Assembly: GCA_002422535.1 (NCBI GenBank)
Contig: DIVY01000017.1
Location: 15,176-79,175, forward strand
Source of the DNA: Bacillales bacterium UBA6120
GTDB lineage: Bacteria > Bacillota_I > Bacilli_A > RFN20 > CAG-826
Direction of reading: 5' to 3'
DNA: 64,000 bases
The notes beneath the pieces are model-generated. The model made no database searches, had not been told where the DNA came from, and worked only from the letters and a program-made list of their open reading frames with translations. The translations under genes were made by a program, and so were the position numbers. Positions 39-46,628 of the stretch are shown here, piece after piece (the stretch's first letter is position 1; every line of letters begins with the position of its first letter).

Positions 39-1739
39 ATGAAACAATTAAATAACGATAATGCTGCTAATCGAACTAGTTATGTTGGACATGTTTATAA
101 CGTGGGGGAAAAAGAATATAAGAAAAGAATTCTTGATGGTCTACCAAAAGAATGGGCGGATTTACATCGTACCGGAGCAATCCACATTCATGATTTGGAC
201 GCCTATGATCTTACCTATAATTGTTTGACTTTTGATATACTTCAAAACTTCCCTTATGATGAGTTTCGAAGTCTAAGTGGTGCTGGTCAAATACTACATT
301 TATTCGATTGGTTTAAAAACCTTTTTACTACATTAGGAAACGAGCAATCAGGGGGAATGGCTTTTGCAAACTTTGATAATGAGGTGGCCACAATTCTTGA
401 AAACCTAGGCATCGATTTTCATCACCACCAAGAGCTGATTGAAGCATCTATTGCCGAGTTAATTCTTTGGTGTAATGGGAACCACTCGAGGATGGGTCAA
501 ACAAGTTACTATGTTTCCTTAAATCTTGGCTTAGCGAATTCAGAAGTCGCTAGATTCATCGCTCGGACAGTCATTAACAAATTCGAATCATTAGGAGAAA
601 AGGTTTTTAAGCCCAATATTGTCTTTAAGGTAGTTGAAGGAATAAATGCATCCCAAGGCAATCCTAATTTTGATTTACTGGAATTAGCCTTACGATGCAG
701 CGCAAAAAAAATGATTCCTACCTATCTTCTTTGTGATTGCAAAGAGGACCGAGATACCGATCCCCATAAATTGTCAGTCATGGGCTGCCGCACACGAGTA
801 GTGGCAAATCTATTTGGAGAAGACGGAGCGATTGGAAGAGGAAACATTTCTAATATTTCCATCAACCTTCCTCGCATTGCCCTGAAGATCGATGAAAGTC
901 ATCCAGAATTATCTTTTGAAGATAAGATGGACCTATTCTTTAAAAAATGGGATCAAGTGGCAATGACAACAAAGGATATTCTTTTGGATCGTTATCAAAA
1001 GCTATGCCAACGGGATGCCGATGATTTTCCAACAAATCTTAGTCATAAGCTCTGGTGTGTCGATTTTATAGAAAAAGAAAATTTAGAAAAAGTGTTTAAA
1101 CACGGAACATTGGCATTAGGTTTTATTGGAATAAGCGAAGCAATCGAAGTTCTTTTCGGGAAGAAATATTATTCAAACATGAATACCTACATTGCCACGC
1201 TTGGATTCATCAAACATATGAGGGACTATTGCGATTTTCTAAAAAATGAATACAAACTAAATTTTTCCCTACTAGCCACTAGCGGTGAATTGATTAGTGG
1301 TAGATTCATCGACTACGATAAAGAACTTTTCAAACCACGGGTAGATATTTTCTCAAAGGGATACTACACGAATTCATTCCATGTAGATGTCGATAGTGGG
1401 CTGCCTGGATATAAAAAAATCCAACTAGAGGGATTGTTTCATGAATACTGCAATGGGGGTTCGATTACCTATGTTGAACTTGGAGAAGCTCCATTGGAGA
1501 ATGTAGAGGGATTAAGAGAATACATTGAGATTGCCACGAAGGCTGGCGTTCATTATTTGGGCTTCAATTTTCCAAAGGATGTATGTAATTTTTGCGGTAC
1601 CTCTGGTGTATTCGATTACTGCCCCAGTTGTAACAGTAAAGATATCACCAGAATCAGAAGAGTATCCGGTTATCTTGAAATTCTTGATGGCTTTACAAAA
1701 GGAAAAATAGCTGAAGAAAAAAACCGGAAGAAGAATTGA
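39..1739 (+). CDS. nrdD: anaerobic ribonucleoside-triphosphate reductase (class III RNR), compact 566-aa form
   Basis: C-terminal glycyl-radical motif RRVSGYL preceded by a Zn-ribbon CNFCG...CPSCN. The ORF has full length in one frame. Its TGA stop overlaps the next ATG (TGAATG). Confidence 0.85.
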   Translation: MKQLNNDNAANRTSYVGHVYNVGEKEYKKRILDGLPKEWADLHRTGAIHIHDLDAYDLTYNCLTFDILQNFPYDEFRSLSGAGQILHLFDWFKNLFTTLGNEQSGGMAFANFDNEVATILENLGIDFHHHQELIEASIAELILWCNGNHSRMGQTSYYVSLNLGLANSEVARFIARTVINKFESLGEKVFKPNIVFKVVEGINASQGNPNFDLLELALRCSAKKMIPTYLLCDCKEDRDTDPHKLSVMGCRTRVVANLFGEDGAIGRGNISNISINLPRIALKIDESHPELSFEDKMDLFFKKWDQVAMTTKDILLDRYQKLCQRDADDFPTNLSHKLWCVDFIEKENLEKVFKHGTLALGFIGISEAIEVLFGKKYYSNMNTYIATLGFIKHMRDYCDFLKNEYKLNFSLLATSGELISGRFIDYDKELFKPRVDIFSKGYYTNSFHVDVDSGLPGYKKIQLEGLFHEYCNGGSITYVELGEAPLENVEGLREYIEIATKAGVHYLGFNFPKDVCNFCGTSGVFDYCPSCNSKDITRIRRVSGYLEILDGFTKGKIAEEKNRKKN

Positions 1740-2255
1740 ATGAAATATTACATTTCGGATTTGCATTTAGGCGATACGCTAGTGTTTAAGTTGTGTGGAA
1801 GAGAAATCACTATTGAACAATTCAATGACCTAATTATCAATAATTGGAATCGTGTCGTGCAAGAAGATGACGAAGTATATATTCTTGGGGATCTAGCGAA
1901 TGAAGAATACAAGGATTGCATCATTTGCCTACGACAACTCTATGGTAATAAGCATCTGATTATTGGAAATCATGACATCGAACTCCTTGAAGATGAAGCA
2001 TTTCGAATCCAATTGCAGAAGATAATGTCGATTAAACACGAAGACCTTATCGAAGATAGTGGTCGACTTGTCTTCCTTAGTCATTATCTACTCCTAGACT
2101 GGTCAGAATGCCATCGAGGAAGTTACCTGATTTATGGACGCATACACAACAAGTCCATACCAGAAATTAAGTCATTTTATAATTATAAACCTGCATTCAA
2201 TGCTAGCACTGATGTGACTGGATTCATACCGCAGACCCTTGATGAATTAATGTGA
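1740..2255 (+). CDS. calcineurin-like metallophosphoesterase (occupies the position where the NrdG activase is usually found)
   Basis: Motifs ISDLHLGD, ILGDL and IIGNHD fit the metallophosphatase motifs I-III. There is no CxxxCxxC radical-SAM cluster motif. It is translationally coupled to nrdD. Confidence 0.65.
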   Translation: MKYYISDLHLGDTLVFKLCGREITIEQFNDLIINNWNRVVQEDDEVYILGDLANEEYKDCIICLRQLYGNKHLIIGNHDIELLEDEAFRIQLQKIMSIKHEDLIEDSGRLVFLSHYLLLDWSECHRGSYLIYGRIHNKSIPEIKSFYNYKPAFNASTDVTGFIPQTLDELM

Positions 2256-2274
2256 TTAAAGGAGGCAAACAAAG

Positions 2275-2862
2275 ATGAACCATATATCAATTGAAGGCAT
2301 GGATGGCGTTGGCAAATCAACTACATGCAAATTATTGGCCGTTCGTCTCGGATATCAATTTGTTGAAAAACCCCTTCATTACCTACTTGACGACCATGAT
2401 GAAGAGATTACCCAATATCAAAAGGTCGCCAAGCGTGTGAATTCAAATAATAATCGTACCTTCACAGCTTGGTACTATGGTTTGAACAATATCTATCTTT
2501 ACGAAAAATTTAAAGGAATTAACATCGTCACTGATCGGCATATTGTTTCCAATTACTGCTGGAGTGGTACGAAAGACAATGTCGATATCTATCGATTGAT
2601 TTTAAATAAAATTGGAAAACCCAAACTAACGGTAATACTTTACGCTAGGCCAGAAGTCATAACCGAACGACTAACTCAAAGAAACGTGTGTGATTCTGAT
2701 ATTGCAAAAGTCGCTCTTAGCGAAGCGGCATACGAAAAGATGATCTATTTTTGCGAGAGGATGAAAATCAATTATGCCGTCGTGGATACAAGTGACAAAG
2801 TGGTTGAGGAAGTCGTCGAAGAAATCATCAGAAAAGTCATGGAGGTAAATAAAGATGAATAG
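2275..2862 (+). CDS. P-loop nucleotide kinase, thymidylate kinase (Tmk)/deoxynucleoside kinase-like
   Basis: N-terminal ISIEGMDGVGKST Walker A. VTDRHIVSNYCW matches the Tmk DRY region. PKLTVILYARPEVITERL matches the Tmk lid. SD AAGGAGG lies upstream. The stop overlaps the next start (ATGAATAG). Confidence 0.7.
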   Translation: MNHISIEGMDGVGKSTTCKLLAVRLGYQFVEKPLHYLLDDHDEEITQYQKVAKRVNSNNNRTFTAWYYGLNNIYLYEKFKGINIVTDRHIVSNYCWSGTKDNVDIYRLILNKIGKPKLTVILYARPEVITERLTQRNVCDSDIAKVALSEAAYEKMIYFCERMKINYAVVDTSDKVVEEVVEEIIRKVMEVNKDE

Positions 2863-5311
2863 CATTGAAACATATCGATTATCCCGAGATATGAAGTATG
2901 AAGCTCTCTATTGGTCTTTAGGGTTTGAAGAATTAGTCACATCAATTTTCACGAAAAAGTACCGTTCAGATCTGATTGCCATAATCGATGTTGATAAACA
3001 AGTTGTAGATTTTTCCGGAAGAATATCGATTATCAATGGCGATGCCTTAAAACTCAATACACACAAAAGCTTTGTGGTACTTGAATGCATCGACAAACTT
3101 TTGTCAATGGGGTATGTCCCAAACGAAATTATTGTTGATTTAAACAATGAGTACGACGTTTTTTTGAATGGCATCTACATTAAGTGTGATGAATGGAGTC
3201 AAAAATTGACCGCAGATGTTATAGTATCACCGGGAACATTTCTTTCGATAAGGTATCAATCTCGACTCGTTAGCGGAGTCATCGAAAGAAAAACCTTGAT
3301 TAATGATGGTTCGGGCTCGTTATTCCAATTCGGAATATTCGAAAACGAGACGAAGCTAGAAAAATACAAATTGTACAACTCATATGAAATTCAAAGCGAT
3401 GACTTTCTAATCAATGGCGGAGTCGCAACAAAATACATTGGTACATCTTCAAAAGCTTTTGTTCCCGAAGGTGTTCGAGAACTGGCGTCCTGTCTTTTTT
3501 GGGATAACCCGACGATTGAAGAAGTAGTTTTACCCGAATCATTGGTGGATCTTGGTGGGGATACGTTCTTTAATTGCGTCAATCTAAAAACAATCACCAT
3601 CCCCCATAATGTTAAGTTCATGGGTAACAATCCATTTGCAGGTTGTATTAATATCCAAATTCAAAACAATTCTCCTTATTTTCATTTAGAAAACGGCGCT
3701 TTGTATAATTGGAATTACAATAAAATCATTTTTTATTCGCCTAGTAACAAAGAACAAAAATACCTAATCAAAGATGGCACGAGAATCGTCGGAAAACATT
3801 CCTTCTATCTATGCAATAACCTTGAATGTGTAAAAATTCCTACCTCTGTCATTAAATTAGAAAATAACCCATTTTCGGGTTGTGAAAAACTTGATCTAAT
3901 AAACGGATCTGACTATTACCATGTAATTGATAAAGTAATTTATAACAGGGAAATGGACACGATTACGGGTTGCCTTAACTCCATCAGTTGCCCTGAATTA
4001 ATACTTCAAAACGTAAAACGAATTGGGAGAAATTCTTTTTGGAACTGCAAAGGACTGATAAATGTCGTCATTCCAAAGACACTAGAAGTTATAGGCTATA
4101 ATCCATTCGTTGGATGTTCGAATATCGAGTTTGAATCGCTTTCGTCAAAGTTTGTAGTCGAGAATCATGCTTTATTCATTGAGGATAAAAGCAAACTGAT
4201 TTGTTATCCACCAAAATACGCGGTAGGAGAAGTATTTTTACCAGATGAAGTCATAACTCTCGAACGTGGGGCGTTTTCAGGATGCGATAAGATGACTAAT
4301 ATCAATTTGCATAATGTGGCAGTCATAAGCAAAACCTGTTTCACTAATTGCCTCAATTTGGAAAAGATTTACTGTTCAGATATGGTTTCTTATATTGGCG
4401 AATGGGCGTTTGCTCATTGCCAAAACCTTAAAGAAATCTCGGTTTATAAGGATTGTTATCTCGATAAGAACTTGACATTGAATTCTACTGCAAGAATAGA
4501 AATCAGAAAAGAAAGAACAAACTATATCGTTGAATCAGATAATCTTTTCACTTTTAATTCGATGACAAGAAGTTATACAGGAAAAATTAAGTCAATATTG
4601 ATCGACCCACCATATAACACGAGAATTGATGCAATTGGTTACCAAGATCAGGGATTTTCTGGGGGATATTGTACATTCATGAAAAAACGCATCGAATTAT
4701 GTCATGTATTACTATCAGAAGATGGCTTTTTAGTAATTAACATCGATAAAGGTGAAGTACATGAGTTATCTAGGTTATGCAATTATGTCTTTGGACATAA
4801 AGCGAAAATCTATAAATGGGAAAAACTTCATCCCCTATTTGATAAAAACAGGAATGTTAATCCAAGAAAGAAATTGGTTAAATATGAATACATTATCCTC
4901 ATTTCAAAGAAGAAAAAAACAAGGCTTAATTTGATTTCAAAACCTTTGATTGTAAAAGGTAAAATCAAAGAAAAATGGAAGAAAATTCCCAAAATTCTTC
5001 GATGTTTTGGCACCACTTCTTCTGCGAAAGATGAAATCGAAGAAATTTTTGGCACACGGGATTACTTTTCTACCCCTAAGCCCGTGAAACTAATGAAAGA
5101 ACTGATCAGAGCAACGACTACAAAAGATTCGTTAATATGCGATTTCTTCGCCGGAAGCGGAACAGTGGGACAGGCTACAATTGAACTAAATCAGGAGGAT
5201 TGTGGGAAACGACAGTATATTCTCGTTAGTAACTCCGAGAATAATATCTGCCAAGAGGTGACACTAAAACGAATCCAAAAAAAAGATCCAAGTGTTGTTT
5301 TTCTTCGATGA
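2855..5311 (+). CDS. fusion protein: unknown N-terminal domain, BspA-type leucine-rich repeats (LRR_5) and a C-terminal beta-class N6A/N4C DNA methyltransferase domain
   Basis: Repeats of the form IPxxVxxIGxNPFxGCxNL span roughly aa 230-560 (e.g. TITIPHNVKFMGNNPFAGC, CVKIPTSVIKLENNPFSGC, VVIPKTLEVIGYNPFVGC, GAFSGCDKMTNINL, GEWAFAHCQNLKEISV). The C-terminal domain carries motif IV ILIDPPYN, FSTPKPVKLMKELI and motif I DFFAGSGTVGQA, in the IV-then-I order typical of Mod/beta-class MTases. There is no signal peptide. Confidence 0.8.
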   Translation: MNSIETYRLSRDMKYEALYWSLGFEELVTSIFTKKYRSDLIAIIDVDKQVVDFSGRISIINGDALKLNTHKSFVVLECIDKLLSMGYVPNEIIVDLNNEYDVFLNGIYIKCDEWSQKLTADVIVSPGTFLSIRYQSRLVSGVIERKTLINDGSGSLFQFGIFENETKLEKYKLYNSYEIQSDDFLINGGVATKYIGTSSKAFVPEGVRELASCLFWDNPTIEEVVLPESLVDLGGDTFFNCVNLKTITIPHNVKFMGNNPFAGCINIQIQNNSPYFHLENGALYNWNYNKIIFYSPSNKEQKYLIKDGTRIVGKHSFYLCNNLECVKIPTSVIKLENNPFSGCEKLDLINGSDYYHVIDKVIYNREMDTITGCLNSISCPELILQNVKRIGRNSFWNCKGLINVVIPKTLEVIGYNPFVGCSNIEFESLSSKFVVENHALFIEDKSKLICYPPKYAVGEVFLPDEVITLERGAFSGCDKMTNINLHNVAVISKTCFTNCLNLEKIYCSDMVSYIGEWAFAHCQNLKEISVYKDCYLDKNLTLNSTARIEIRKERTNYIVESDNLFTFNSMTRSYTGKIKSILIDPPYNTRIDAIGYQDQGFSGGYCTFMKKRIELCHVLLSEDGFLVINIDKGEVHELSRLCNYVFGHKAKIYKWEKLHPLFDKNRNVNPRKKLVKYEYIILISKKKKTRLNLISKPLIVKGKIKEKWKKIPKILRCFGTTSSAKDEIEEIFGTRDYFSTPKPVKLMKELIRATTTKDSLICDFFAGSGTVGQATIELNQEDCGKRQYILVSNSENNICQEVTLKRIQKKDPSVVFLR

Positions 5312-5555
5312 ATGTGTCTAATTACATGGTTTGCAATGTCTGGTTAGAGGTTTCTAATGAAATAAATCAAAAACAAAAATGAAATATATAATTTATAATA
5401 TATCAATTCGAATATATCATCTTTTTTAGTGAAGAAAAGATAGTGATTAGCAAAACCAAGTTATAGTTTCAATATAAAGCATGTTATAAAAAAGGCTAAG
5501 TAGTGGTTTTTAAAAAAATAGGAAAATATTTAATCGATTAATAAGAGGAGTTAGC

Positions 5556-6743
5556 ATGGATTATTTGCGGAACCACTATATCCCAAAATTTCTGTTGAAA
5601 AACTTTTCAGAAAAGGCCGAGAATGGAAAGTGGAAAATAAATTATATAAATCTCGGTTCTCGAAAAGTAGAACGGCGAAATCTTAAGGCAGTTTTTGCCC
5701 AGAATAATTTTTATGATATTCCGAGTGCTTCTGACACGAAGATACTCGAGAAACGCTTCAATTTGAAAATCGAAACTCCAATGGCTCAAATTGTGGACAA
5801 GATTATCAGTTCTAACGAAGGATACATCACAATTACAAGGAAAGAACTGGGAATAATAAAGAAATTCATTCTGATTCAGATGTATAGAAATCCAGCGAAT
5901 CAAGGTCAATATCAAAATGCTTCAGAAAAGGACTCATTCACATTCTCAAAAGCTTTCAAGAAAGAATCAGAAACGGATATTGATTATTGGAAACGGGAAA
6001 TGCTTTATGTGATTGAGCAATAATGGGATACGTTAATTACTCAAACTGATATGCCAGGAGTTCACCAGGTTGCCAACAATATCTTTACCGGGTATTTGAC
6101 TTTCTTCACAACACAAAATGAATTTATATTAGCTGATGTTCCGGTTTTTTCTGAGCGATTTCCTATGGAAATTCAAAAAAATCAGGAAGCCGATTTCATC
6201 AAATATGCTAGAGAATCTAGCAGGTCAAGAGGACTGAGTGAAGAACAAGCAGAAGCTAACATGAGAAAAGAGATACGTGAAAAATCAAGTTACATTGAAA
6301 ATTTCTTTGTCGTGGTACTTGCTCCTGGTCTTGCAATAGCTGTAATAAATGTGATTTGGAAGTTGCATTATCTTTATGATGGTCTTAATGGTCGTTTACA
6401 TAGTCCTATTTTAGGTAATCCAAAAAACCTAAAACTACCTCAAACCTATTATGCTAATAAACACATGATAAAGTATGAGGACGAAATCAAAAAATATAAG
6501 AATCCCAAAGATCAATATAGATACAATCTAATTCCATTAACTCAGCAAGAGACCGACTATCTTATGACTCTTTCACTCAACGAAAGTAGATTATTTATCG
6601 GTTTTAAAAACAAAGAAAGCATTCTTCGACAAGTCACTATTTACAACCGCTTGACAAAAAAAGAGTTAATTAACTTAAAAATCAATTTGCAGGATATTCC
6701 AAATCTAATTAATAATTTCAATTATGAGCGTGATAAGGGTTAA
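5556..6743 (+). pseudogene. DUF4238-family gene (Rst_DUF4238-like single-gene defence family) interrupted by one in-frame TAA at 6021-6023; ORFs 5556-6023 and 6051-6743 share a frame
   Basis: N-terminal HYIPKFLLKNF matches, from memory, the HY(V/I)P(Q/K)FYL(K/R)NF start of DUF4238. Both ORFs are in the same frame and are separated only by TAA plus 9 sense codons. The combined length is about 395 aa. An AT-rich promoter region and an RBS (AGAGGAG) lie upstream. Confidence 0.55.
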
Positions 6744-6930: not shown

Positions 6931-8568
6931 ATGTTTAAGAAGATGAATGTCGTTATCACTTCAATTGTGATGACGCTTAGCGTGCTTCTAAGTCTTTTTG
7001 TTTTGTATACGCCAGTTCCTACTGCTGATTCATCTGGATTCAGCGCGGTCCAGGCGGCTTCCTACATTAGTGAGATATCGAAAACACCACATGCCACTAG
7101 TGATGAACTTGAACATGAACGCGTGCGTTTATATTTGAAAGATACACTTTCGGAATTTGTCGGTGCTTCTAATGTGGTGGAGATGAACTACGCGAAAGAA
7201 GATGTCGATCCCGATTGTGAATATGACATTAAAAACTTACTAGCGACGATTCAGGGTACCTCGGATACTGGTATCATGCTAGTTGCCCATTACGACTCAC
7301 GGGGACATATTGGTCGCTCAGGCGAACTTGGTCGATCGTATGGCGCTGCTGATGATGGCTATGGTCTCGCGACGATGTTAGAGATTGCGCGTCTATATGG
7401 TAATCGAGACTTGTCAAACTCCATTTATCTGTTAATGACGGATGGAGAAGAGACGGGATTATATGGAGCCATCATGGCGGCGCAAGAAACGGCTTTGATG
7501 GATAAGATTGGCTTCGTGATTAATATTGAAGCGCGTGGCATTCAAGGCGCCGCTTATATGTTTGAGACTTCCACCAATAACAATAAAGTCATCGATTTCT
7601 ATCAACAAGCGAAACTTGAAGTGTCGTATAGCTTGGCTACGGCAGTATATACGGTGATGCCAAATATGACGGACTTTACCGCTTTCTTAGCCGTAGGCAA
7701 ACAAGGTGTGAACTTCGCAGTTCTCGATGGACTTAATTACTACCATTCACCTCTCGACAACTACGATAATATTGACCTGTCTTCCATCCAACATTACGGA
7801 AGCCAAATATTGCCAATGGTGGAAGAATTTGTCACCAATAGCGCTTACTCTGATGTCAATTATTTTGTCGGTACCCAAAATAGTGTCTTCTTTACCTTAT
7901 TACCAAATGTATTTGTGTCATATTCGGAAACCATGGCCATTATTATTAACATGCTTTTACTAGTTACTTTCATTGGTCTAGTGGTCTTTCTCGTCTTAAA
8001 AAAACAAGTCAAGTTACTCGCACTATTAAAGAACTTGGGATTTGTATTTGGTTCGCTTATTGTTACGGCAGTTATTGGACTATTCATCTCGAAGCTCATT
8101 GCCTTTATCGGAAGTGTTCCTTGGTCCATTACTTATGTAAGAATGCAAGGAACGGAACTTCCAACCATTTTAGTGATGCTTGGAACAATCCTAGGCTTCT
8201 CGTTCTTGATTCATCGGTTTATGAAACATAAAGAAGCGAAAGTATCGTTAATGCTTTCAGGTATCTTCCTTAATTTACTGTTAGCAACAGTAACGGGCTT
8301 TATTCTTTCAGGCGCCAGTTTCTTATTCATGATTCCCGCTTTAGTGGGCTTAATTGCTTTAATCGTTGATACCTTTGTTAAAAACAGGATTGTTAAGCAT
8401 GTGGCTTTTAGTCAAACTATCATTTGGAATGTGCTCATGATGATTCCCATTCTTTTCTCCTTATTCCTTTCCTTAACCGTGGGTGGTCTATTAGCGCTAC
8501 TCATCATTCAAACTTTATTCATGAGTGTGATGTTACCTTCGATCTTCTTACAACTAGAACTTAAATAA
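6931..8568 (+). CDS. membrane-anchored M28-family Zn aminopeptidase with a C-terminal polytopic membrane domain
   Basis: M28 metal-ligand motifs LVAHYDS, GAADDGYG and TDGEETGLYGA. An N-terminal TM is followed by 8 or more C-terminal TM segments. RBS AGGAGG. Confidence 0.8.
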   Translation: MFKKMNVVITSIVMTLSVLLSLFVLYTPVPTADSSGFSAVQAASYISEISKTPHATSDELEHERVRLYLKDTLSEFVGASNVVEMNYAKEDVDPDCEYDIKNLLATIQGTSDTGIMLVAHYDSRGHIGRSGELGRSYGAADDGYGLATMLEIARLYGNRDLSNSIYLLMTDGEETGLYGAIMAAQETALMDKIGFVINIEARGIQGAAYMFETSTNNNKVIDFYQQAKLEVSYSLATAVYTVMPNMTDFTAFLAVGKQGVNFAVLDGLNYYHSPLDNYDNIDLSSIQHYGSQILPMVEEFVTNSAYSDVNYFVGTQNSVFFTLLPNVFVSYSETMAIIINMLLLVTFIGLVVFLVLKKQVKLLALLKNLGFVFGSLIVTAVIGLFISKLIAFIGSVPWSITYVRMQGTELPTILVMLGTILGFSFLIHRFMKHKEAKVSLMLSGIFLNLLLATVTGFILSGASFLFMIPALVGLIALIVDTFVKNRIVKHVAFSQTIIWNVLMMIPILFSLFLSLTVGGLLALLIIQTLFMSVMLPSIFLQLELK

Positions 8569-9613: not shown

Positions 9614-10408
9614 ATGACTAATTTACAAATCGCCATCTTTGGAGTCGCCTTAATATTTGTGATGACCGTTGCCGGTTCAGTCATGGTGTACTTCTTTAAA
9701 AACACCATTAATGAGAAGTTTAATAAGATATTCTTGGGCTTTGCCGCTGGGGTAATGATTGCCGCGAGTGTCTGGTCATTATTAATTCCGGCGATTGACA
9801 TGTCAAATAATCAAGGTTTGGCCGGCTGGATTCCCGCCGCGGTTGGCTTTGTCGCTGGTGGCCTAGTGTTACTAGGAATCGATAAGTTAGTGCCGCACTT
9901 CCACGTCGAAGGGCATGTTGAAGAAGGCTTACCTTCAAAGCTATCAATGAGTTCTAAGCTATTTCTGGCGATGACGATTCATAATATCCCTGAAGGTTTA
10001 GCGGTTGGCTTCGCCTTTGGTGCCGCTTTTTTAAGTGGCGAGCGAGCGATGTTTCTCGCGGCGTTAGGTCTTGCGATTGGGATTGGTTTACAAAACTTTC
10101 CCGAAGGGGCGGCTGTTGTCTTACCTTTGAAGAAGGAATATGGCAATACCAATCAAGCGTTTGGCATGGGTGTTATCAGCGCCGTAGTGGAACCGATTGC
10201 CGCAATTATTGGCATCTTGCTCGCCTATTATGGAGCGGGGGGTATCATGATGCCGTGGTTACTCGCGTTTGCTGCGGGCATGATGATTTATGTCACCGTG
10301 GAAGAATTAATTCCAGAAGCTCATCTTGGTGAGCATAGCGACTTTGGTACCTGGGGTTTAATGATCGGATTTATGGTAATGATGATTCTTGATGTTGCTC
10401 TTGGATGA
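9614..10408 (+). CDS. zupT: ZIP-family divalent metal transporter
   Basis: HNIPEGLAVG ZIP signature, a His-rich loop HFHVEGHVEEG, and 8 predicted TMs. Confidence 0.8.
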   Translation: MTNLQIAIFGVALIFVMTVAGSVMVYFFKNTINEKFNKIFLGFAAGVMIAASVWSLLIPAIDMSNNQGLAGWIPAAVGFVAGGLVLLGIDKLVPHFHVEGHVEEGLPSKLSMSSKLFLAMTIHNIPEGLAVGFAFGAAFLSGERAMFLAALGLAIGIGLQNFPEGAAVVLPLKKEYGNTNQAFGMGVISAVVEPIAAIIGILLAYYGAGGIMMPWLLAFAAGMMIYVTVEELIPEAHLGEHSDFGTWGLMIGFMVMMILDVALG

Positions 10409-37600: not shown

Positions 37601-37607
37601 GAATATG

Positions 37608-37746
37608 ACTTCAGGGTCGGGTGCGATTCCCAATCGGCGGTATACCCCGCGAGCTTCAAGCAGGAACTAGTGCAATTCTAGTGGCGACAGTAAAGTCTGG
37701 ATAGAAGAAGTCAGCGCTTTTCGACCCGAAGTGGGTCTTTTTTTAT
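37608..37746 (+). promoter_or_regulatory. FMN riboswitch (RFN element) with terminator-type expression platform
   Basis: CAGGGTCGGGTGCGATTCCCAATCGGCGGTATA ... GGCGACAGTAAAGTCTGGATAGAAGAAGTCAG matches the B. subtilis ribD RFN (GGGCAGGGTGAAATTCCCGACCGGCGGTA ... GCCGACAGTGAAAGTCTGGATGGGAGAAGGA). The P1 strands are GACTTC and GAAGTC. A GACCC-GAAGT-GGGTC hairpin plus T7 follows at 37723-37744. Confidence 0.85.
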
Positions 37747-46286: not shown

Positions 46287-46628
46287 TTGCCGACCCGGAT
46301 GATTGCTGGCGTAAGCTAGAGGAAAGTCCATGCTCGCACGGGCTGTGATGCCCGTAGTGATTGTGCTAACGGAAACGATAACGTTAGGTATATGGGAGCA
46401 TATAACGGCGGCGCAAGGCCTAAGTCGCAAGATATGGCGGCGCGCCTTAAAGTGCCACAGTGACGCAGTCTAGTAGGAAACTCTAGAATGGAACGCGGTA
46501 AACCCCACAAGCGAGAAACCCAAATTTGGTAGGGGAAGTTGATGAAGGGAAGCGAACCATCATCATCATGCAATGCATAGATAAATAATCGTCCTTGACA
46601 GAACATGGCTTACAGGGTCGGCTACTCA
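46286..46628 (+). ncRNA. rnpB: RNase P RNA, type B, compact (about 340 nt)
   Basis: GAGGAAAGTCCATGCTCGCACGG, GATGCCCGTAGTG, AAGTGCCACAGTGACG, GGAACGCGGTAAACCCC, AGCGAGAAACCCAAATTTGGTAGGGGAA and ACATGGCTTACAG all match B. subtilis rnpB. P1 is formed by GTTGCCGACCC and GGGTCGGCTAC. The position directly after gpsB mirrors Bacillus synteny. Confidence 0.9.

Follow-up and report, generated by a model that had tools for sequence, protein, structure and literature searches.

DUF4238 in phage defence and the gene in the window

The closest described system is a single DUF4238 protein encoded in the P2 hotspot of Escherichia coli, which confers strong resistance to phage T7 and the molecular function of which is unknown (Rousset et al. 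2022, PMC9122126). The 309-residue protein WP_001515549 is a close E. coli relative, DUF4238 in the hotspot tables of PMC9122126; its gene is flanked by the replication endonuclease and portal genes of a P2-like prophage, and the PADLOC DUF4238-Pers model PDLC03000 matches it with 725.5 bits. A survey from 2024 was still unable to place Rst_DUF4238 in any known domain family, and a search of the accessible literature library found no mechanistic paper on DUF4238.

The window, that is, the whole stretch of 64,000 nucleotides analysed here (contig DIVY01000017.1 of Bacillales bacterium UBA6120), contains a DUF4238 gene that is divided between two ORFs, 5556-6023 and 6051-6743, lying in the same frame and, when joined, giving a 395-residue protein. 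The gene consists of the following parts.

5312..5555, + strand: spacer upstream of the DUF4238 gene, 244 bp, AT-rich, containing the Shine-Dalgarno sequence GAGGAG at 5545-5550
5556..6020, + strand: N-terminal part of the DUF4238 gene, 155 codons, with the family-conserved residues H7, Y53, E65, E73, R95, K102 and R111
6021..6023, + strand: premature stop TAA, next base T, codon 156 of the DUF4238 gene
6024..6743, + strand: C-terminal part of the DUF4238 gene, 239 codons and the natural TAA, with the frame open and colinear with intact homologues, and with the conserved residues F190, D194, E200, N249, D319, Y323 and Y363

This layout had been noticed in a sequence-only reading of the same DNA, and the sequence and its translation agree with the ORF coordinates, the nine sense codons and the joined length of about 395 residues given there. 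The gene starts with the ATG at 5556, the TAA at 6021-6023 is followed by nine sense codons (WDTLITQTD) that lead to an ATG at 6051, and the frame from that ATG is open until the TAA at 6741-6743, with no second stop or frameshift in the 1,185 bp of the gene. The gene encoding a methyltransferase with leucine-rich repeats (LRR-methyltransferase), at 2855-5311, precedes the DUF4238 ATG by the 244 bp of the spacer. Five more adjacent ORF pairs in the window share a frame, with one stop between them, and are plain neighbouring genes, so that it is homology rather than the shared frame that sets the pair at 5556 and 6051 apart from chance.

Such homology is evident from the comparison with Pfam. 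The joined protein matches PF14022 (DUF4238) with 114.1 bits (E=1.1e-32), above the gathering threshold of 27 bits, in one stretch from residue 5 to residue 210 (profile positions 1-217 of 281) that begins at the N-terminal H-Y-x-P motif and spans the stop, as expected of the single DUF4238 gene, cut by one in-frame TAA, that had been recognized from the letters alone. The N-terminal ORF on its own scores 98.6 bits (E=5.5e-28), and the C-terminal ORF on its own has no Pfam match. The Pfam match leaves out the last ~185 residues, which are peculiar to a subfamily of ~385-440-residue proteins whose members come chiefly from uncultured Bacilli, Acholeplasmataceae and Clostridia. PF14022 matches all 30 aligned subfamily members, and the segment HYIPKFLLKNF, named in the sequence-only reading as the family hallmark, corresponds to the N-terminal motif NHY[IV]P.F[IL]LK.F that is conserved in the 30-sequence alignment, its H7 being present in 124 of 130 full-length family representatives. 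The weak secondary matches to other families (His_kinase, LmuA, PDC-M16B and a MazF-like phrog) all have E>=0.002 and were judged to be noise. By these matches, the window gene is a member of a known family, PF14022, in a diverged subfamily.

The relationship to the E. coli protein extends to the Pfam family, to the single-gene organization without a conserved partner and to the location among defence-type or mobile genes, and DUF4238 as a single-gene phage defence, as described in the sequence-only reading, is a validated anti-T7 system. The label 'Rst_DUF4238-like', however, holds only as far as the shared Pfam family and is otherwise overstated: PDLC03000 does not match the window protein at E<=0.01 or any of the 30 subfamily members at E<=10, and the profile-profile comparison (hhalign) with the E. 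coli protein yields 78.7% probability (E=1.7e-5) over the N-terminal ~105 residues only. Both hhalign and hmmsearch align residues ~4-117 of the window protein with residues 5-113 of the E. coli protein, so the detected homology falls short of full length. The two proteins also differ in size (395 residues in the window and 309 in E. coli), and E200 of the subfamily appears, by inspection of the two sequences, to be replaced by Met in E. coli. The E. coli gene resides in a P2-like prophage, whereas the window gene lies outside such a prophage and is interrupted, its neighbours being the LRR-methyltransferase and an M28 peptidase gene, with no phage structural genes nearby. By these comparisons, the kinship of the window protein with the validated E. 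coli Rst_DUF4238 protein is no more than distant. The search of viral contigs with one pattern found no relatives, and phage records gave one weak partial match only.

Homologues, conserved residues and the replaced codon

Homologues of the gene are, as a rule, single ORFs. The first protein search retrieved, besides the second ORF itself, four full-length proteins of 386-424 residues that are 30-41% identical to the joined query over 97-98% of its length and colinear with it through the stop. A scan of species-representative genomes, which did not return the window's own locus, yielded 56 homologue loci, and in the 14 of these whose matches, at 22-38% identity, covered the query wholly or for the most part, the ORFs were traced and all found to be uninterrupted (13 complete, with 382-434 residues, and one ended by the contig end). 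A profile search yielded 39 proteins, the closest of which (P0014-P0016) are 46-47% identical to the joined protein, and among about 45 close homologues single ORFs are the rule. The exhaustive HMMER search of 1.84 billion cluster representatives detected 2,933 family members at E<=1e-3, including 139 at E<=1e-30, and almost every one of the best 150 of the 2,933 is a single full-length chain, with roughly 320-490 residues. Two separate genes, an arrangement that the sequence-only reading had named as one that would refute it, are therefore not the normal form, and the window gene departs from the one uninterrupted polypeptide of the family by the TAA at codon 156.

The conserved residues of the family are distributed on both sides of the stop. 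The invariant residues of the 30-sequence alignment are E73, R95, K102 and R111 on the N-terminal side, with D194, E200 and N249 on the C-terminal side. Among the 130 full-length representatives, the N-terminal side has H7 in 124, E65 in 130, E73 in 128 and R111 in 127, and the C-terminal side has F190 in 120, D194 in 123, E200 in 119, N249 in 110, D319 in 109 and Y323 in 115. The window sequence keeps all of the family-conserved residues, H7, E65, E73, R111, D194 and N249 among them. The AlphaFold2 model of the joined protein, a confident one (mean pLDDT 86.7, pTM 0.88), is one compact alpha/beta unit, in which the stop falls in a loop between the helices 141-154 and 158-162. Given the conserved residues on either side and the single domain, truncation at this point parts two conserved sets from one another.

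The column of the stop itself is variable. In the subfamily, it is occupied mostly by D, with E in one of the three closest relatives (P0014), and family-wide it contains S (34), D (29), N (23), T (19), P (7) and E (5), so that the identity of the residue that was replaced hardly matters. Aligning the homologues to choose among Gln, Lys and Glu, the check proposed in the sequence-only reading, points to Glu: the most parsimonious change, and probably the actual one, is GAA to TAA by a G-to-T substitution at 6021.

The conserved His, Glu, Asp and Arg residues suggest an enzyme; a nuclease or hydrolase activity of DUF4238 would be speculation. The Foldseek comparison of the model with the PDB produced nothing (best E=0.85, TM about 0.1), and neither did searching the PDB sequences with a profile. 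Among viral structures, the model matches just one protein, from the P2-like Stenotrophomonas phage Smp131 (E=1.4e-6).

The stop allele, its age and its explanation

The TAA is not peculiar to one assembly. The same codon is present in three other independent assemblies, ENA ERZ27315036, Logan SRR5323149 and JGI 3300002498 (the allele is shared by the contigs L001/L071, L002 and L072). Compared with the window, the ENA sequence has 16 SNPs, all inside 9844-10240, the Logan sequence has a single SNP at 7515, and the JGI sequence has five SNPs and a 186-bp gap (window 10088-10273 missing). Thus, four datasets from four sources, separately sequenced and assembled and representing at least three haplotypes, all contain the TAA, and the exact 155-residue and 230-residue products are recorded in NCBI, JGI, ENA and Logan. 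The lesion is a substitution, with no change of homopolymer length. The TAA allele is genuine and fixed in the sampled near-clonal genomes; because these genomes are nearly clonal, they offer no power to measure selection. An intact allele was found neither in a search of 5.8 billion proteins nor among the JGI metagenome contigs.

The differences between these assemblies have a pattern of their own. All 16 ENA differences belong to the ZIP-family transporter gene at 9614-10408, in a cluster of ~400 bp (window 9844-10240), and the part that the JGI assembly lacks, 10088-10273, is in the same gene. The differences may represent a tract of recombination or local variability of this gene, the genomes being nearly identical elsewhere.

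No further decay is seen in the gene. In a leave-one-out test on columns conserved in >=85% of the other members, with the stop itself left aside, the window sequence deviates at one of 38 such columns (a conservative L to I change) and at none of the 15 past the stop, compared with 0-3 deviations in intact members. The absence of decay after the stop implies that the lesion is recent or, in a minority reading, that the second half is still under selection, given that an open, conserved frame of 239 codons is also expected from selection on a functional second polypeptide.

The possible routes around the stop find little support in the sequence. The TAA is the commonest stop in the window, ending 29 of the 55 long ORFs, which indicates that the genetic code is standard and leads us to reject an alternative code; no bacterial code is known to take TAA as sense. 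Termination-context studies in E. coli rank TAA with a following T among the strongest contexts, and no recoding signal was seen at this one. Coupled restarting at 6023-6025, where an ATG overlaps the stop, is rejected because this ATG is out of frame and its reading closes after eight codons. The predicted energy of the anti-Shine-Dalgarno duplex is -8.5 kcal/mol at the 5556 start as opposed to +1.2 kcal/mol at 6051, where it is weaker than at 96% of the ORF starts and at 90% of all ATGs in the window; an independent start at 6051 was accordingly rejected for want of a Shine-Dalgarno sequence, and separate translation of the second half is left unsupported. Low-level re-initiation 27 nt past the stop, or rare readthrough, is possible as judged from sequence alone. 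The spacer has the length and the AT-richness attributed to it in the sequence-only reading but its promoter-like character is not established: there is one weak promoter-like match at 5392-5420, the region holds four matches in total compared with 8.2 in shuffled sequence, and the promoter and terminator scans of the region gave nothing better than shuffled sequence. A search for flanking repeats or insertion scars at the gene found only short, chance-level repeats.

These observations are best explained if a diverged DUF4238 gene has recently become a nonsense pseudogene at 5556-6743, which we consider very probable, and the 'recent pseudogene' of the sequence-only reading is the best of the possibilities listed there. 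A single-protein gene of 395 codons, belonging to the diverged subfamily, would have gained a nonsense codon at position 156 through one substitution. Ribosomes that start at 5556, where the binding site is good, would then terminate after 155 residues, yielding a product with only the N-terminal conserved set (H7, E65, E73, R95, K102 and R111), and the other set (D194, E200, N249, D319 and Y323) would remain in a stretch that lacks a ribosome-binding site of its own, so that the full protein would not be made. The ancestral intact protein would have been a stand-alone phage-defence effector, as is the E. coli anti-T7 DUF4238 protein, an extrapolation from a distant relative, and the loss of the gene would have been tolerated or even advantageous, given that genes of this kind are dispensable or costly.

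The principal rivals of the pseudogene explanation retain some function for the divided gene. The halves, cut in a variable surface loop, might still be made and reassemble, or the lesion might be the off-state of a costly effector; taken broadly in this way, a functional lesion seems unlikely. Its more specific version, in which ribosomes make the 155-residue product and, after re-initiating at 6051, the 230-residue product as well, and the two assemble into an active protein, is compatible with the intact downstream frame and the retention of every conserved residue, with the position of the stop at a variable column in a loop between helices, and with a restart codon just 27 nt 3' of the stop. 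Nevertheless, this version appears quite unlikely: the ATG at 6051 is without a Shine-Dalgarno sequence, the stop-overlapping ATG at 6023 is out of frame, the cut is inside a single Pfam domain, and no homologue is divided at this point, the other broken homologues having homopolymer frameshifts near residues 24 and 181. A truncated N-terminal fragment that is functional by itself, such as a regulator or a decoy, would have a good ribosome-binding site and a block of conserved residues to its credit, as well as an allele that is fixed in all four datasets; yet where the databases contain short members of the family, these are fragments at contig ends or further broken genes, and no natural DUF4238 lineage of ~155 residues was found among the 2,933 representatives, which makes a functional fragment very improbable.

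Attenuated expression, whereby rare readthrough of the TAA would supply a trickle of the full-length toxic effector at a low dose, is in line with the frame being kept through the stop and with the undecayed sequence; the TAA is, however, the normal and commonest stop in a strong termination context, with no sign of recoding, and such attenuation is, in our estimation, highly unlikely. An error of sequencing or assembly, with a sense codon at 6021 in the true genome, was also among the suggestions of the sequence-only reading; it is rejected, being exceedingly improbable for a substitution that recurs identically in four datasets and at least three haplotypes.

The window gene is not the only broken member of the family. 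Altogether, three independent disruptions were found among the ~45 close homologues and the best 150 of the 2,933 representatives: the TAA described here, one at the locus L062 and one shared by L068 and L069. In L062 (5780-6010, protein P0019), the first ~24 codons are lost through a frameshift in an A-run, and in L068 (1340-1375) and L069, which come from two samples, the halves (P0129 and P0130) are parted by a 1-base deletion in a T-run near codon 181. The lesions are at differing positions and hence the two-gene form is not the norm. Those in L062 and L068/L069 could be pseudogenes, slippage-prone switches or homopolymer sequencing errors.

Genomic setting and significance

The DUF4238 gene is at the edge of a low-GC, defence-rich stretch. 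The GC content is 31-38% from the start of the window to ~6900 and 36-46% beyond, as profiled to 13800, with 42% for the whole window, which suggests that a segment that was acquired, or is distinct in composition, ends at the gene. Upstream of the window, the same genome has type IIG R-M-like genes, then an Nhi/AbiO-like helicase and two unknown genes; next come nrdG, nrdD, a phosphoesterase, a thymidylate-kinase-like protein and the LRR-methyltransferase. In the subfamily, the gene stands alone among variable, defence-like or mobile neighbours with no constant partner: the neighbours differ in every examined locus and include a NERD protein, an AlwI R-M system with DUF4357/DUF2971, an AAA_11/12 helicase with a protein kinase, a serine recombinase, C5 methylases, AAA_14/DUF4143 and DUF3800.

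Among these neighbours, the LRR-methyltransferase might have seemed a functional partner, as the sequence-only reading proposed in calling the DUF4238 gene a possible restriction-like companion. No homologue has it as a conserved neighbour, and the partnership is rejected. In a tblastn search against the 56 homologue loci, the methyltransferase was found in L028 only and in another arrangement: this locus keeps the cluster from nrdD to the methyltransferase at 44-64% protein identity, and its DUF4238 gene, a member of a different subfamily (23% identical), is on the other side of the cluster, upstream of nrdG.

The cluster itself is conserved in order between window 39-5311 and L028 8335-13681, the latter from a distant relative (nrdG-nrdD, metallophosphoesterase, thymidylate-kinase-like protein, LRR-methyltransferase). 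The LRR-methyltransferase (818 residues) consists of BspA-type LRRs fused to a type III Mod-like N6/N4 methyltransferase, with no restriction subunit adjoining it, and the kinase-like protein matches the PADLOC candidates PDC-M51B and VakA at ~1e-15.

The DUF4238 gene of L028 represents a different organization within the same Pfam family, in which a ~435-residue DUF4238 protein is encoded together with two ~270-residue proteins without Pfam matches. Although the L028 example adjoins the same nrdG-nrdD-phosphoesterase-kinase-LRR-methyltransferase cluster as the window gene, these DUF4238 proteins are only 20-24% identical to the window protein, and the window gene is without such partners downstream. 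Such pairs of adjacent genes (~262-275 residues, no Pfam or PADLOC match) are located 3' of the ~435-residue DUF4238 gene in four genomes (L028 4503-7424, L065 4715-7683, L066 5001-7875 and L022 292-3214). In the genome of the window, ~1.4-4.9 kb upstream of position 1 (L071 5124-8645), a pair follows a 623-residue Nhi/AbiO/PDC-S41-like helicase; its second member is 36-41% identical to the second partner gene, and the first is matched by position and size only. The arrangement resembles a modular candidate defence system of three genes, the first of which is exchangeable. Farther upstream, L071 348-5080 contains type IIG restriction-methyltransferase-like sequence in separate ORFs of 579 and 796 residues, which match different parts of one PADLOC profile and have a 149-residue ORF between them; this region may be another fragmented defence gene.

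Among the RNA features of the window are a class B bacterial RNase P RNA at 46291-46617 (288 bits), which points to a low-GC Gram-positive (Bacillota-type) chromosome, and an FMN riboswitch at 37603-37716 (95 bits); the window contains no tRNA genes.

A defence-family gene killed by a point mutation is an ordinary finding, common in bacterial genomes. For annotation, the consequence is that the two 'hypothetical' ORFs should be combined into a single entry marked as a DUF4238 pseudogene, and that the pair should not be taken for the restriction partner of the LRR-methyltransferase. The window gene provides a natural loss-of-function allele, the one-base repair of which could probe phage defence or toxicity in this subfamily. 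The three lesions show that DUF4238 genes are disrupted repeatedly, and if, in the less likely reading, these disruptions represent recurrent switching-off, this would suggest that DUF4238 proteins are toxic when active.
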